This document shows, piece by piece, positions 11,708 through 42,732 of a stretch of 47,939 nucleotides of DNA; the stretch's first letter is position 1; the number at the start of each line of letters is the position of its first letter. Source of the stretch: a virus (Duplodnaviria > Caudoviricetes); IMG/VR virus record IMGVR_UViG_3300031953_000030, positions 1 through 47,939 of that record. One strand, given 5' to 3'. The notes beneath the pieces are model-generated. The model was not told the DNA's origin and ran no database searches. It was given only the letters and a program-made list of their open reading frames with translations. Made by a program: the position numbers and the translations under genes.

Positions 11708-12478
11708 TTGACGAATGTAAACAATAGGATCGACCCGGCGGTATATGGACTCCACGCTGGTGATGAGGTCTACTTCTACGTTGGATTCACTACAAAGAAC
11801 TCTGACAACAGGCGCTATGAACATATCTATCGAGCGCGTTCCGGGCACGCGGCGGCGGTGTATGACAGGATCAGAGAGATAGGACTGGCCAATCTGTGCG
11901 TTACTGATCTTGTGAAGATTTCAGACGTGTCCAGCGGAAAGCGTGTCGAGGCTGAGAAGATTAAGGAGTTGATCGACCTAGGGTTTCCCATCAGGAACAC
12001 TTTAGGCCGCGACGGAGTTCCCGACTCTCTGCCCGAAGAGATGCGGAGTACGATGGCATCCACGCGGCGTGGCAAGGCTACTTGGATAAAGGGCAAGACT
12101 GGCGAAGATGCTGGGTGGACCGATTCGCGCCGTTTGGCGATGTCTGAGAGTGCTAGGATTAGGGCAGAAAATAGGGAGCCTAAGCATGGCACTAAGAATG
12201 AGTACAGCCTGCATAGTTGCCGTTGCGACTTGTGCTTTTCAGCCGCTCGCAACCCTAAGGCAAAGGCTCAGACTCACGGGAGATACCTGTACAAGCGTGA
12301 TCGCTGTCGGTGCGAGGTCTGCGTGAAGGCTAACCGCGACTATCTCAACAAGTGGTACGCCGAAAAAGCTCGCCTCCAGCGGGAATCTAGCAATTATAGA
12401 AAGGGGTACGCAGAACCCCCAGTGCTTATTCAGGCTGGGGGTTTTGTCATGCCTTGGGCCAATACGCTTGGATCGTAG
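11708..12478 (+). CDS. GIY-YIG family homing endonuclease with C-terminal Cys/His repeats
   Basis: VYGL...YVGFT, R..EH and conserved E; NUMOD-like RGK..WIKGK; two HG..Y...CRC..C repeats; GGAGG RBS with TTG start. Confidence 0.75.
   Translation: MTNVNNRIDPAVYGLHAGDEVYFYVGFTTKNSDNRRYEHIYRARSGHAAAVYDRIREIGLANLCVTDLVKISDVSSGKRVEAEKIKELIDLGFPIRNTLGRDGVPDSLPEEMRSTMASTRRGKATWIKGKTGEDAGWTDSRRLAMSESARIRAENREPKHGTKNEYSLHSCRCDLCFSAARNPKAKAQTHGRYLYKRDRCRCEVCVKANRDYLNKWYAEKARLQRESSNYRKGYAEPPVLIQAGGFVMPWANTLGS
12413..12445. terminator. Hairpin terminator between the convergent arms
   Basis: AACCCCCAG/CTGGGGGTT stem just past the stop of the minus-strand resolvase gene. Confidence 0.7.
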
Positions 12479-26639: not shown

Positions 26640-27078
26640 CTTTTGCATCCTCCCGCTCGTTGTTGTCGAACATTGATCGGACAGACTCAACAACCAAATC
26701 TCGGATACTGTCAAAACCTAAGCCAGCAATAATCTCGCCAACCCTTTCGTCAATCAAGTGCCGGTGAGCAGTAACCGAATCATTCAGCAACTCTTGACCC
26801 ACGCTACGATTATTGTAGCGGTCAGCCTCACGGAACAAGCTGTAACTGCTCATCTCGCCAATTACCTTCACTACCTTGTCGGCAATGATGCGTTCAACCT
26901 TCTTGCCCCCTAGCGCAAACCCTTCTTCAACGAGCGCAAACACTGTCGCATATCCAATGTTGTCCAGAATGGTTTCAGCGCGACCCTTTTTCGCCTGCTC
27001 CCGCATCTCTGAACGGAATGCTTCGATGGCTAATTCACGTTTCGTTTCCTCGTCTAGCTCGTACTCAAAACTGCTCAT
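26632..27078 (-). CDS. Hypothetical protein
   Basis: GGGAGG RBS. Confidence 0.7.
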   Translation of the reverse strand: MSSFEYELDEETKRELAIEAFRSEMREQAKKGRAETILDNIGYATVFALVEEGFALGGKKVERIIADKVVKVIGEMSSYSLFREADRYNNRSVGQELLNDSVTAHRHLIDERVGEIIAGLGFDSIRDLVVESVRSMFDNNEREDAKDV

Positions 27079-27715
27079 CTTGATCCTCCCTTTTCGTAGT
27101 TGTGCGATCGGCGTAGTTGTGGGTAAAAAGCTCTAAGCGTTTCGCCTTAGCAACAGCCCCGGCTTCCTCGGCCGTTTCAAACAACCCGAGATAGTGCTGC
27201 TTGCCACTATCTGTGACCATCGCACGCCACCGCTCATTCTTCTTGTCCCAGTACGCACCACGGACACCCGAACGGCCAACCCTAGCGGCACCCTTGCGGT
27301 TCTCACTGCTCTGCTTACTCGTGACCGCAATCAGATGTTCTGGCCGAACACACGCATGAGTCTCGCAAATGCGTTTAATCATAAACCCCTCGGGTATCGC
27401 ACCGTACGCAAGCTCGTACGCAATACGGTTGGCACGCTTTTTACTCCCGCCGACGCTAACCTGCCCGTAGCCTTCCTTGTCCTTACCTGCGGTCCATACC
27501 CAGCACTCGCCAGACTTGTCTGTGTGTGCCTCCATACGCTCCGATAACGTCTTACGGCTTGATAGCCGCGTAAGAGGTTTTCTTACTTGCTGTTGTGCGT
27601 AGTGGTCAATGCATAGAGCATTCGAGTAGACCGGATGATCGCATCCCTCAAACGCGCATGCGACCAGTCTTTCATTAGCCGATTCTAATACTGCTTGCTG
27701 TGTCATTCCGGTCAT
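27065..27715 (-). CDS. HNH homing endonuclease with AP2 DNA-binding domain
   Basis: CWVWT..GYG..RIAYE..C....CVRPEHL; AP2 SGVRGAYW..WRA..HYLGLFET; AAAGGAGG RBS. Usual His positions read N and R, so it may be degenerate. Confidence 0.85.
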   Translation of the reverse strand: MTGMTQQAVLESANERLVACAFEGCDHPVYSNALCIDHYAQQQVRKPLTRLSSRKTLSERMEAHTDKSGECWVWTAGKDKEGYGQVSVGGSKKRANRIAYELAYGAIPEGFMIKRICETHACVRPEHLIAVTSKQSSENRKGAARVGRSGVRGAYWDKKNERWRAMVTDSGKQHYLGLFETAEEAGAVAKAKRLELFTHNYADRTTTKREDQDEQF

Positions 27716-27751
27716 TCTCAAGCCTCCTTTTGGGCAGCTATTCTTCTTGCC

Positions 27752-28138
27752 TGTGGATAACATTGTAACTCATGTAACCCCCCATGTCAACGTTATGTAA
27801 GGAACTAGTAATCACTTGCAGTAATCCAATCAGGTTATTCCCCTAAATCGCTATCTGGATTATATTTATATTATAGCGATATAATCCGTATATATATCTT
27901 CACGGATAAGCCTATGTGGTCGAGGCAAGTGATTACTATCTGGTCGAATAAAAACATATCTGGCAAAAATAGGGAAAGTCTGAGTCTGAGACGTTTGCAG
28001 GGATTTTGTTCGACAGCTAGGTACCCCCTTAAGATTAAAGCCTATCTAGTATATATATATTTATATAGAAATAGGCTTATTTGGAGGTAGGGGGTAGCTC
28101 CACCGAACCTTAGAGTTTACCTCAAGAAGTTATCCACA
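27752..28138. other. Putative replication origin
   Basis: AT-rich and ORF-free; nested inverted repeats; perfect DnaA boxes TGTGGATAA 27752-27760 and TTATCCACA 28130-28138. Confidence 0.6.
27762..27790 (-). promoter_or_regulatory. Near-consensus sigma-A promoter
   Basis: TTGACA-17 nt-TACAAT on the minus strand. Confidence 0.88.
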
Positions 28139-30717: not shown

Positions 30718-31566
30718 ATGATTGATTCTAAAAATTTTTGTGTTGTAGAAAAATGCGAGAACCCTGCGGCTAGGCATGTCTGCAAGAAGCATCAGGTCGA
30801 TATTCGTCTCGGGCGCTTGGAGGCTGAGCCGGGTTGGGGTGTTAGGCGTAATCCTAATTGTTCGCGGGGTGGGTGTGATTGGCCTGCCGATTCGCGCAAG
30901 GATGGTGCGCTGTGTCATACGCATCGTCGGCAGCCACGTGGGACCGGATCGGTTCGCCCGAAGCTACGAAGGGGTGAGAAGTCTGAGGTGTGCATTGATG
31001 GTGCATGCCTGAATCCCCCAGCTAGTAGGAATCTTTGCTTCCGCCATTACCAATACCATATTTCCGGTAGACGACTTCCCGAGAAGACCCCCTGTGGGCA
31101 TGAGGGGTGCGCGATCATGACACGCAAGGGTCACTGCGGGAAGCACATGTACCAGTTCGAGAAGTACGGCCTTACTTGGGACAATCGCGCGCCTGATGCC
31201 GTCAGGCTGGCAAGGCACGAATTGAAGCCCGTGTGTCTTGTTCCACTTTGCGTGACCAAGGCGAACAGTATTGGCGTTGGCCTATGCCCGGCGCATAATG
31301 GGGCTAGGGGGAAGCTAAGCGTGGATGTGGAGCACTACCTGCGGCTGATGGCGGTGAAGTCATGTGAGATGTGTGGTGACAAGGTTCCTTTGGCTACGGA
31401 TCACGATCATTCGTGCCATCCTGAAGACGGCAAGAAGATGTGTGAAAAGTGCATTAGGGGGCGTATCTGTCTTTTTTGCAACTCTGCTTTGGGTTTTTTG
31501 AGGGATGATCCGGGCCGTGCGCGTATGGCGATTACGTATTTGGAGGCGTTTCAGGCCAAGTCCTGA
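30718..31566 (+). CDS. Endonuclease VII-family homing endonuclease with N-terminal Cys/His repeats
   Basis: CEMC..DHDH..RGRICLFCNSALG..D..AITYL; about five C-x4-C...C..H repeats. Confidence 0.88.
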   Translation: MIDSKNFCVVEKCENPAARHVCKKHQVDIRLGRLEAEPGWGVRRNPNCSRGGCDWPADSRKDGALCHTHRRQPRGTGSVRPKLRRGEKSEVCIDGACLNPPASRNLCFRHYQYHISGRRLPEKTPCGHEGCAIMTRKGHCGKHMYQFEKYGLTWDNRAPDAVRLARHELKPVCLVPLCVTKANSIGVGLCPAHNGARGKLSVDVEHYLRLMAVKSCEMCGDKVPLATDHDHSCHPEDGKKMCEKCIRGRICLFCNSALGFLRDDPGRARMAITYLEAFQAKS

Positions 31567-33567: not shown

Positions 33568-33594
33568 GCTTGGCGGACTGGAGGAGGAGGGTAA

Positions 33595-34149
33595 GTGAGT
33601 AAAACTATACTCGTGGATATCGATGGAACGCTTGCAAACTGGGGAGCACATTGGGATTGGCACTTGGATACTTACTTTGAGCCGTGGCAGACTGCGCGTA
33701 TTCCGCGCCACGCGGAGCAGAGAACCTTTGACTTGACGGCTGGGTTGGACTTTGATGAGAGGCAGATTGTTGAGCAGGTGATGGCGTGGCCTGAGTTCTA
33801 CGCCAACGTGCCAATGATAAACGGTGCATGGCTGGGGCTGCGTAGGCTAGAGTCTGCCGGGCACGACGTGTTCATCTGCACCTCCCCGTGGCTACCGAAT
33901 GAGACGTGCGCTTCGGACAAGTTGGAATGGGTCGAGAGTCGGTTCGGCGCTGGCTGGGCGGAGCGCACGATTATTACTAAGGATAAGACAATGGTTAATG
34001 GGGATGTTTTGATTGATGACAAGCCGGAGGTGAAGGGGTTGTGTAATCCGTCGTGGGAGCATATCCTGTTTGATCAGCCCTACAATCAAGAGGTTGTTGG
34101 TAAGCGTCGGATCATGTCTTGGTCTGACTTTGATGCGGAGGAGATTTAG
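33595..34149 (+). CDS. 5'(3')-deoxyribonucleotidase (HAD, NT5C-like)
   Basis: VDIDGTL, ICTSP, K..W, DVLIDDKP and FDQPYN motifs. Confidence 0.92.
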   Translation: MSKTILVDIDGTLANWGAHWDWHLDTYFEPWQTARIPRHAEQRTFDLTAGLDFDERQIVEQVMAWPEFYANVPMINGAWLGLRRLESAGHDVFICTSPWLPNETCASDKLEWVESRFGAGWAERTIITKDKTMVNGDVLIDDKPEVKGLCNPSWEHILFDQPYNQEVVGKRRIMSWSDFDAEEI

Positions 34150-34150
34150 G

Positions 34151-35254
34151 ATGGCTAGACCAGCTATGGGAATAGGGAGAACAGAGTACGACAAGGCTTC
34201 GTTCGTTACCGCGCTTGAGAACCCCATTGCCTTCCCGGGGGACTACGTTGATGGAACCACGCAAGCGAAGAAGCGTGTTGAGGACTTTGATACCACTGGA
34301 GCCGTCTCTGTCGAGCAGATTCAGGCCGTGGCTGACGCTGGCAAGAACCTTGGCTACCGCTCGCCCGAGGAGGTGCGTACTACGTCCTCTACTGGTGGTC
34401 AAAAGGGAACAAAAGGAAGTGATAAGATAGAGACATGCCAAGAAAAGAACCCGCACCACCAGCAAAGTGCCACCCCGAGCGCCCCCGGAAGCTTGCCGAT
34501 GGGACATGCGATAGATGCTACGCCAGAGAGCGATACCGAAGTAACCCAGAATCCCGCGAGCGCACAAAGGCAGTCGCAAGGAAGAGCTGGCATAAGCGGA
34601 ACCCGGAACTCACCCCAGAGCAGAAGAGAGTCAGGCTCGATAGAAGGAGCGAAAGATATGCCACTGACCCTGAGTACAGGCGGAAACTCCAATCTACACT
34701 CCTTGAGCGGAAAGTCGGAATCACCCTTGACCAATATGACCGGATGCTTGAAGAACAAGGAGGAGGCTGTGGGATATGCGGAAGAATGCCAAGCGCAGAT
34801 AGAAGGCTCGCCGTTGACCACTCGCACGTCAGTGGGAGCGTCAGGGGACTCCTCTGCTCCGGCTGTAACACAGGGATTGGCCTCCTCGGAGATTCGGCTG
34901 ACACCATCAGGCGAGCAGCAGATTATCTCGAAGAGCACAACCGGAGGGCTCAAGCAGGTTAAGCCGTCTCGCCACGATTTAATTCCGAGTGGTGCCTTGG
35001 ATGCTCTTGCACGGCACTACGGGGCTGGGGCAATTAAGTATGAAGATAACCAGTGGCGTAAGGGTTACGAGTGGGGTAAGTCGTATGCGGCTTTGCAACG
35101 GCATTTGAATGCGTGGTGGGGTGGGGAGGATTTGGATGAGGAGACTGGTTCTTCTCATATGGTGGCGGCTGCGTGGCATTGTTTTACGTTGTTGACGTTT
35201 ATTGATGAGTTTCCTGAGTTTGATGATCGGTTCAAGAAAGAGGAGGGCGAGTGA
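34151..35254 (+). CDS. dATP/dGTP diphosphohydrolase-like (DUF5664) protein with a 183-codon in-frame insertion
   Basis: EVRTTSSTGGQKGTK...RHDLIP..GAIKY..NQWRKG..RH...GEDLDEETG..H..AAAW; GGAGGAG RBS. Confidence 0.85.
   Translation: MARPAMGIGRTEYDKASFVTALENPIAFPGDYVDGTTQAKKRVEDFDTTGAVSVEQIQAVADAGKNLGYRSPEEVRTTSSTGGQKGTKGSDKIETCQEKNPHHQQSATPSAPGSLPMGHAIDATPESDTEVTQNPASAQRQSQGRAGISGTRNSPQSRRESGSIEGAKDMPLTLSTGGNSNLHSLSGKSESPLTNMTGCLKNKEEAVGYAEECQAQIEGSPLTTRTSVGASGDSSAPAVTQGLASSEIRLTPSGEQQIISKSTTGGLKQVKPSRHDLIPSGALDALARHYGAGAIKYEDNQWRKGYEWGKSYAALQRHLNAWWGGEDLDEETGSSHMVAAAWHCFTLLTFIDEFPEFDDRFKKEEGE
34415..34963 (+). mobile_element. Homing endonuclease insertion (promoter plus EndoVII ORF)
   Basis: 549 bp; interrupts the conserved GQKGTK|P.R.DLIP junction; A/purine-rich against T-rich flanks. 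Confidence 0.8.
34435..34962 (+). CDS. Endonuclease VII-family homing endonuclease nested in another frame
   Basis: GITLDQYDRMLEEQGGGCGICG..LAVDHSH..VRGLLCSGCNTGIG..D..AADYL. Confidence 0.92.
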   Translation: MPRKEPAPPAKCHPERPRKLADGTCDRCYARERYRSNPESRERTKAVARKSWHKRNPELTPEQKRVRLDRRSERYATDPEYRRKLQSTLLERKVGITLDQYDRMLEEQGGGCGICGRMPSADRRLAVDHSHVSGSVRGLLCSGCNTGIGLLGDSADTIRRAADYLEEHNRRAQAG

Positions 35255-42057: not shown

Positions 42058-42126
42058 AGTAGTATGGGTAAAGCCCCGCGCAGTAGAAGCTGCCGGGGCC
42101 GTGAACGACCGAAAGGAGTCGATAGA

Positions 42127-42732
42127 ATGAGTGTACCAGAAAAGCAGTGTTCGGTGAATGGCTGCGATAAGGCAGTCAGACTGGCTGGCATGTGTGGAGC
42201 GCACCACCAGCGCAAGACGCGTGGAACTGACATGAACGCCCCCATGCGGGTGTGGCTGGATACGCCACCGGGAGAGTGCTCAGTTGATAATTGTAAGAAT
42301 ATTTCGGACGCTAAAGGAACCAAGGCGGTGTGTGCAATGCACAGGGGGCGCATGAGCCGGAACGGTGGATATACTATAACGAGAATGCAGCAGGGCGCGA
42401 GGCTTACTTGTACCATTCCGGGCTGCGTTAGGGCGTATAGGTCATCTGGTATGTGTAATTCGCATAACGTGAAGTCTAAGACATACAGTATCTCTTGCAT
42501 GCAGATGGCGATGCTCTACGGAGACGGAAGCTGCGACTCCTGTGGAGGGGTGCCCGAGAAGGACTTGCATATAGACCACGATCATAACTGTTGCGCTGGG
42601 GCCAAGTCTTGTGGGGCTTGTGTTCGCGGGGTGCTTTGCAGTAGGTGCAATATTGGGCTAGGGTGCTTCTCGGACTCTCCTGATAAACTTAGCGCCGCAA
42701 TGCGATACTTAGAACGCAATCTGATACCCTAG
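42127..42732 (+). CDS. Endonuclease VII-family homing endonuclease
   Basis: AAAGGAG RBS; three Cys/His repeats; HIDHDH..VRGVLCSRCNIGLG..AMRYL. Confidence 0.88.
   Translation: MSVPEKQCSVNGCDKAVRLAGMCGAHHQRKTRGTDMNAPMRVWLDTPPGECSVDNCKNISDAKGTKAVCAMHRGRMSRNGGYTITRMQQGARLTCTIPGCVRAYRSSGMCNSHNVKSKTYSISCMQMAMLYGDGSCDSCGGVPEKDLHIDHDHNCCAGAKSCGACVRGVLCSRCNIGLGCFSDSPDKLSAAMRYLERNLIP

Follow-up and report, generated by a model that had tools for sequence, protein, structure and literature searches.

An Endonuclease VII (EndoVII) gene lies out of frame inside a phage DUF5664 gene, at a K|P junction, and its last codons, when read in the host frame, spell a recoded version of the very motif that the insertion splits. 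We consider it fairly probable that ribosomes read through this element and its motif patch, yielding an unspliced enzyme of 367 amino acids. As judged from the sequence, the DUF5664 domain is complete downstream of the insert because the 3′ end of the nuclease gene rebuilds the split motif, and because the motif is rebuilt beside the rest of the domain, a loop of 183 residues inside the first motif need not be tolerated. The dual-coded motif patch is the new part of this arrangement, the read-through strategy itself having been published in 2025 (PMC11855218). Our searches of the open-access literature turned up no description of an EndoVII insertion into DUF5664, nor of a motif repaired by dual coding.

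The host gene (34151..35254; this and all other features of the locus are on the + strand) was identified in the window, by which we mean the whole stretch of 47,939 nt that was analyzed, a 47.9-kb phage record. It belongs to the DUF5664/dATP-dGTP diphosphohydrolase family (PF18909), is preceded by a strong Shine–Dalgarno (SD) sequence, GGAGGAG (34137-34143), and reads as 367 amino acids without a stop, the frame remaining open across the insert, as the first-pass annotation of this DNA had stated. Public annotation calls it as a 367-aa protein on four contigs and as a 172-aa protein starting at M196 on one fragment of 1132 nt. From 5′ to 3′, the gene consists of a variable N-terminal extension (residues 1-72; 34151..34366), which is different in the related phage L001 and missing from many homologs; the native motif EEVRTTSSTGGQKGTK (34367..34414), which the insert separates from its domain; the insert itself (34415..34963); and the DUF5664 helical body (34964..35254). 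Compared with the empty allele of L001, the native motif is identical at 37 of 48 nt and the helical body at approximately 90% of nucleotides, and the downstream domain has 93% protein identity.

The PF18909 match on the host protein covers residues 264-360 (104 bits; cut-off 27) and begins inside the insert, and the complete DUF5664 domain corresponds to residues 256-360. The invariant DUF5664 columns are retained, and on the basis of the PF18909 match and these conserved residues, the protein is a predicted dATP/dGTP diphosphohydrolase. For the DUF5664 homolog of phage Wayne, dNTP pyrophosphohydrolase activity has been described as demonstrated (PMC12884076). No solved-structure relative of DUF5664 was found by sequence or with Foldseek, and the best VIA-align candidate was 2p06 (Z 7.3; rmsd 4.9 over 82 residues). 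In several other members of the family (P0023, P0025, P0027, P0035, P0036, P0039, P0045, P0148, and P0150), the DUF5664 domain is duplicated internally, with one copy degenerate. A WhiB gene in the window points to an actinobacterial host for the phage, and the sequencing runs that contain the locus carry the label brine metagenome.

The mobile insert measures 549 nt, or 183 host-frame codons. Its dissection in the first-pass annotation into a 20-nt leader, an EndoVII ORF in another frame, and a single final nucleotide agrees with our reading of the ORFs. The leader (34415..34434) is free of stops in the host frame, whereas the other two frames are closed, the nuclease frame by TGA TAA (34420-34425) and the remaining one by TAG at 34428; it also contains an SD-like stretch ending 11 nt 5′ of the nuclease ATG, which is a long spacing. 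The nuclease gene (34435..34962) encodes 175 amino acids of the EndoVII/DHHRN type in frame 3 relative to the host, its ATG beginning at the third base of a host codon and its TAA being followed by 1 nt of insert. The only Pfam family that it matched was PF02945 (Endonuclease_7; E 3e-23). All of the DHHRN residues (D128, H129, H131, R137, and N145) and both CX2C pairs (C112/C115 and C141/C144) are present, and the catalytic residues of the nested nuclease are intact; its exact sequence was absent from the protein collection searched. Two features near or within the nuclease gene were rejected: a sigma-70-like site at 34898-34926 was at chance level (2 found vs 1.2 expected), and a weak hairpin around the nuclease start was not significant (z -1.63). 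Elsewhere in the window, at 11708-12478, 27065-27763, 30718-31566, and 42064-42732, there are two EndoVII genes, one HNH-AP2 gene, and one ORF with no Pfam match that looks, by eye, GIY-YIG-like. The phage is rich in free-standing nucleases.

The first-pass annotation had placed the 549-bp insert of 183 codons precisely at K|P and had proposed a search among homologs for empty alleles joined there, and such alleles were found. In L001, a related phage with 80–90% nucleotide identity, the empty allele reads EEVRTTSSTGGQKGQK|PSRHDLIP (...TGGQKGQK|PSRHDLIP), joined at K|P. A second empty allele, on a contig in runs X1/X2 (which may amount to a single data set or be the source itself), skips 553 nt and has 4 letters between, a net shortening of 549. 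An assembly artefact as the origin of the insert was ruled out, since both junctions of the occupied allele are spanned by single contigs with 0 differences, in X4 and in X1/X2. Pieces of the occupied allele were matched exactly in all eight runs (seven studies), with no variants inside the insert, and L001-type sequence was present in the same eight runs at approximately 60–220x the depth of the occupied allele, a ratio of depth that does not equal the share of cells. Empty and occupied alleles therefore occur in the same metagenomes. The L001-type phage also has 595 other letters at window positions 33584-33637, just 5′ of the NT5C gene, and this difference is another variable insertion.

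A same-strain empty allele was looked for and not found, so that the case for homing is the patchy distribution, which may point to it; the related occupied alleles are known from proteins. No EndoVII match was found in the flanks of 80 DUF5664 loci (the best 80 of 337), and the complete genome of L001 had no match to the nuclease. Searches of viral contigs with the nuclease, alignment A2, P0096, and two junction patterns returned no other occupied-allele DNA, L192 and L193 being rejected as occupied alleles. Among metagenome contigs, only the window's own record (L026) matched; genome contigs contained no occupied allele, their four pattern matches being attributable to chance; no GenBank phage record covers the insert; and a protein search with host residues 80-290 gave none among 1183 candidates.

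The patch occupies 34916..34963, where the last 15 codons of the nuclease gene read AADYLEEHNRRAQAG-stop in the nuclease frame and QQIISKSTTGGLKQVK in the host frame (residues 256-271). QQIISKSTTGGLKQVK is in register with the native motif, and the two copies share only 22 of 48 nt. The residues S, T, G, G, K, and K are kept in the rebuilt motif, and its off-consensus residues are Leu for Gln/Glu and Gln for Gly. With a motif matrix built from 51 distinct natural motifs (the anchor was matched in 74 of 80 loci), the rebuilt motif scored 17.8 and the native motif 57.6. The rebuilt motif is weak by natural standards, as 50 of the 51 natural motifs scored higher in a leave-one-out comparison (median 49.4). 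None of the synonymous open recodings of the tail reached 17.8 in two sets of 83,735 and 66,884 (mean about -30, sd 11–12), and the native and rebuilt motifs were the only ones to do so among the 56,278 stop-free six-frame 16-mers of the window. The rebuilt copy is predicted to form the β-hairpin of the domain, with pLDDT values of ~72 in the full protein and 83–87 in the domain alone. The rows of the homolog alignment sat on the rebuilt copy, which biases these models; they indicate that the patch is compatible with the hairpin, not that it is preferred over the native copy. Downstream of the left junction, 22 of 27 nt differ between the occupied and empty sites, and at the rebuilt right junction, 13 of 27 nt upstream and 3 of 27 nt downstream differ from the L001 empty site. 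The recoded junction likely protects the occupied allele from the nuclease.

Protein sequences suggest that the patch recurs in four database DUF5664 proteins and one nuclease. P0024 and P0028 begin with ...SGEQQTISESSTGGLKQVK|LERFDLIP, and P0026 and P0096 begin with ...SGERPSTSATGGRKNVK|NQRFDLIP. Among 207 DUF5664 proteins, only the window's protein, P0024, P0026, and P0096 fitted all 13 EndoVII motif positions in the shifted frame, in each case just 5′ of the motif, and P0028 shares the tail; the next best fit was 10/13 (47,368 windows). The nuclease P0002 (48% identical) ends in DGWSQAS, whereas the window nuclease ends in NRRAQAG. The P0002 tail fits codon positions 2-3 of the window at seven of eight sites, compared with at most four of eight for 107 other tails. 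For the best achievable motif score, it ranked first among 109 tails (31.5, followed by 23.0), this being a permissive measure by which two unrelated tails (23.0 and 22.9) beat the window's own (22.1). Between the conserved YL and the stop, the nuclease tail varies in length among three lineages, while the motif stays anchored at the junction. The annotated starts of P0024, P0026, P0028, and P0096 lie inside the nuclease, and their host frames may be closed upstream of these starts; the longest contig of P0024 is 11.9 kb, and the contigs carrying P0026 and P0028 measure 808 and 1420 nt.

Other members of the family depart from the usual motif region in different ways. P0092 has a different Ser/Thr-rich insert of ~150 aa after AAKY, which is bracketed by cysteines and has a shifted-frame EndoVII fit of 10/13; it is possibly a second, independent invasion of the DUF5664 family. 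P0033, P0108, P0114, and P0135 have the atypical motifs TGGRKNLK and TG[GA]RKEVK, with a poor nuclease-tail fit (4/6), and could be either patch relics after nuclease loss or plain variants.

The open host frame had been attributed to codon choice in the nuclease gene, and the codon counts given were accurate: all 14 Leu codons are CTY, all six Val codons are GTY, the three ATG codons are followed by C, and the single ATA by T. The accompanying rule, that host-frame stops arise from NTA or NTG followed by A or G, fails for NTG followed by G (TGG encodes Trp and is no stop). A value of 3e-7 derived from the Leu and Val counts was discarded as a test of stop avoidance, since most such codons could be NTG without creating a stop. 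Given the nuclease protein and the codon use of the phage, the chance of an open host frame was 0.036 (2.85 stops expected); it was 0.0013 with uniform codons, and over the opening 75 codons of the nuclease alone it was 0.24. In 40 other genes, none of 4307 overlapping 175-codon windows was open in the equivalent frame. The comparison with the window's two other EndoVII genes, which the first-pass annotation had suggested, pointed in the same direction: these have 10 stops each in that frame, and CTY/GTY make up 16 of 37 and 9 of 22 of their Leu and Val codons. Furthermore, the +1 frame was open over a 90-codon core in only one of 73 non-nested EndoVII genes (from the best 80 of 603).

The host-frame product of the insert is also poor in hydrophobic residues, with 23 of 160, compared with 50 ± 5 in open recodings (0 of 1500 as low); over the first 75 nuclease codons, there are 7, compared with 19.8 ± 3.4 (1 of 1500). 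Relative to 78 free EndoVII genes, regressed on GC content, the depletion reaches only z = -2.4, and one of 38 GC-matched free EndoVII genes was equally poor in hydrophobics. All eight nested EndoVII elements fall below the regression line (z -0.1 to -2.4). Overall, the open frame moderately exceeds chance. AlphaFold gave pLDDT values mostly <50 over the insert, whose host-frame product is predicted to be disordered; the earlier description of the insert as a disordered linker therefore holds for most of its length, with the exception that PF18909 starts inside it.

Among the ways in which the host enzyme could be made, read-through is the likeliest and an internal start is its main rival. Read-through is supported by the length of the insert, an exact multiple of three, by the confinement of the leader stops to the other two frames, by the strong SD of the host gene, and by a hydrophilic, open host frame that extends 5′ of both candidate internal starts. 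In the rival explanation, the element and patch are the same, but the enzyme is produced mainly from an internal start (GTG 207, M170, or the ATG that relatives have in DHDH), so that the nuclease and host genes form an overlapping cassette that provides a new 5′ end, with read-through in a minor role; we regard this as distinctly less probable but worth serious consideration. The entire domain lies within residues 256-360 and many homologs start with M-x-EVRT, and a self-contained domain with a rebuilt motif therefore keeps an internal start viable, a start of this kind being among the conditions that the first-pass annotation had named as refuting its interpretation. The two candidates in the window are M170 (34658..34660; SD -8.0 kcal/mol) and the GTG at residue 207 (34769..34771; SD -11.4 kcal/mol), and the annotated starts of four related proteins fall within the nuclease, three of them at an equivalent ATG in the His-Asp codons of DHDH. 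However, the SD strength ahead of GTG 207 was equalled by 65 of 1500 and 194 of 1500 recodings under two nulls, the latter obtained by shuffling the codons that the gene itself uses; 5′ of GTG 207 and M170 alike, the frame stays open and its product hydrophilic; and short calls can be artefacts of fragments, as in the 172-aa call of the window's own gene on a 1132-nt piece, which becomes 367 aa on full contigs.

It is improbable that the host gene is dead or irrelevant, with the open frame and the look-alike motif being by-products of codon use in the nuclease. An open-frame probability that is only 0.036, the status of DUF5664 as an accessory gene, and a T-poor codon use that could come from a foreign genome would all fit this explanation, but the patch score exceeds those of all synonymous recodings, the patch is kept across lineages whose nuclease tails vary in length and sequence, the downstream domain retains 93% protein identity to L001, and the equivalent frame is open over the 90-codon core in just 1 of the 73 non-nested EndoVII genes.

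Least probable of all is that the insert is removed from the RNA or skipped by the ribosome, as an unrecognised intron or a gene-60-like hop with the motif duplication as a remnant: two same-phase registers would indeed place a T at the end of the 5′ exon and a G at the end of the insert, and the final AAG of the insert is one base off the preceding AAA codon, but nuclease coding takes 528 of the 549 nt and leaves 21 non-coding nt, Rfam gave no match (0 at E <= 10), the insert RNA is less structured than 20 of 20 shuffles (folding z = +2.4), the motif copies are only 22/48 nt alike, an open hydrophilic frame would be superfluous, and there is no host-frame stop anywhere in the insert, including after the take-off codon, where a T4 gene 60-type bypass has an immediate stop as well as a matched landing codon. 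The first-pass annotation was thus right in seeing no intron structure, and equally in seeing no intein termini, given that the insert starts with G, ends with K, is followed by P as the +1 residue, and has no Hint match.

Under the read-through explanation, which we prefer, the ribosome would translate the host frame straight through the insert, producing a floppy N-terminal arm followed by a complete domain, and the nuclease would be weakly translated from an ATG of its own, which follows the 20-nt leader and its two in-frame stops. The nuclease would then cut empty DUF5664 alleles of co-infecting phages near the codons of TGGxKxxK|P, and repair would copy the element into the cut allele; the occupied allele departs from the empty site at each of its junctions, which would confer immunity to self-cleavage. 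We infer the steps of homing, cleavage, and expression from sequence. A broader idea, about which we are evenly divided, is that this is a cut-and-rescue drive, in which an EndoVII family homes into TGGxKxxK and brings along a recoded, cleavage-resistant version of the motif, overprinted on its final codons, the off-consensus Leu and Gln being the price of immunity and the rebuilding of flanks being general (together with the ShiLan case considered below). If this were true, dual-coded rebuilding of flanking motifs would constitute a third way into conserved motifs, besides splicing and splitting. The patch would explain how a nuclease can enter the middle of a motif without splicing and without killing the host protein, a question left open by the ShiLan paper. 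For annotation, the consequence is that either one long host protein is called and the nuclease is missed, or the host start is placed inside the nuclease. The locus also offers a small test system, with a published DUF5664 enzyme assay (described in PMC12884076), a domain of ~110 aa, and both alleles in the same samples.

Nested EndoVII ORFs were also sought elsewhere, as had been proposed. After three duplicates were dropped from the best 80 of 603 loci, 77 distinct loci remained, of which four lie inside host genes that stay open: L109 (terminase), L123 and L137 (helicases), and L178 (intein). Out-of-frame EndoVII genes without an intein were also found in the helicase of Gordonia phage Malisha gp71 (L010) and in a terminase (L023). 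The terminase- and helicase-nested genes at L109 1244-1921, L123 1414-1974, L023 1291-1884, and L010 1962-2456 have no intein ends. In L109, L123, and L023, cysteines occur near both ends of the host-frame insert and perhaps form a metal clasp that closes the loop, and in L010 and L123, the nuclease tail overruns the conserved RVLI/KILLT strand of the helicase. The helicase-nested EndoVII of L137 (1372-1950) is in the +2 frame, the sole +2 case among 86 loci, and lies near the site used in Malisha gp71. At L021 551-2410 (Malisha gp71; also Squiddly), an unannotated out-of-frame EndoVII lies inside the annotated helicase, and these cultured phages provide an accessible test system. In L129, L012, and L155, the +1 frame of EndoVII is stop-free from its 3′ part into the next gene, running 493, 234, and 160 codons, respectively, beyond the nuclease stop.

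The first-pass annotation had presented a splice-free, dual-coded insert as a previously unknown strategy; the splice-free dual coding stands, but the same layout has been described for an HNH nuclease in a phage methylase (PMC11855218). In that study (Arsenault, Gosselin, Gogarten 2025), an HNH gene is hidden in frame 3 of the methylase (ShiLan domain/Pacc40 gp60), starts 18 nt into the insert, and ends in TAAC, and the 11 residues that open the insert look like the 11 that follow the site, which the authors took as a weak sign of a group I intron. The window element appears to be the same kind of hidden insertion with a different nuclease family. Both have a frame-3 nuclease in an accessory phage gene, starting 18 nt (ShiLan) or 21 nt (here) into the insert and ending in TAA plus one base, and in both the host frame is open, intron and intein features are absent, and the host-frame product is disordered. 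A look-alike of the flanking motif also overlaps the HNH start in ShiLan gp65 (SYEPVCVAVKP vs TAFEPIVVARKP), a duplication that we confirmed. On the other hand, the partners there are HNH and a methylase, whereas here they are EndoVII/DHHRN (PF02945 only) and DUF5664, and the copy here lies at the 3′ end and is of the upstream motif, a mirror image of the ShiLan arrangement. In the available text of that paper, the resemblance is not tested as dual-coded repair.

EndoVII-like nucleases in frame 3 have also been described inside inteins (Gosselin et al., 10.1101/2025.01.02.630785), as has a dnaX intein whose nuclease is out of frame and whose host frame stays open (10.64898/2026.09.14.751524), and we confirmed an out-of-frame nuclease inside an intein in the Angelicage terminase. 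The frame-3 inteins resemble the window element in nuclease family and open host frame, as far as described (10.1101/2025.01.02.630785), but inteins rescue the host by protein splicing, whereas the window insert has no splicing domain. F-CphI, a phage nuclease of the DHHRN family, is described as cutting a conserved gene in nuclease-free relatives (PMC6083498), and all the catalytic and zinc-binding residues of that family are present in the window nuclease; F-CphI has a free-standing gene and owes its protection to an intron next to it, whereas here the insertion and the recoded junction would protect. Aeh1 mobE in nrdA and T4 mobA at gene 60 are likewise intron-less nucleases in important parts of a gene, but according to the source (PMC2988022), they split the host into separate coding regions, whereas the window gene keeps one ORF with the motif rebuilt. 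In fungal mitochondria, free-standing nucleases similarly come with a duplicated piece of atp9, atp6, or cox1 (PMC7487136); the copies described there are near-identical DNA beside the ORF, whereas the window copy is only 22/48 nt alike and is overprinted on the codons of the nuclease.
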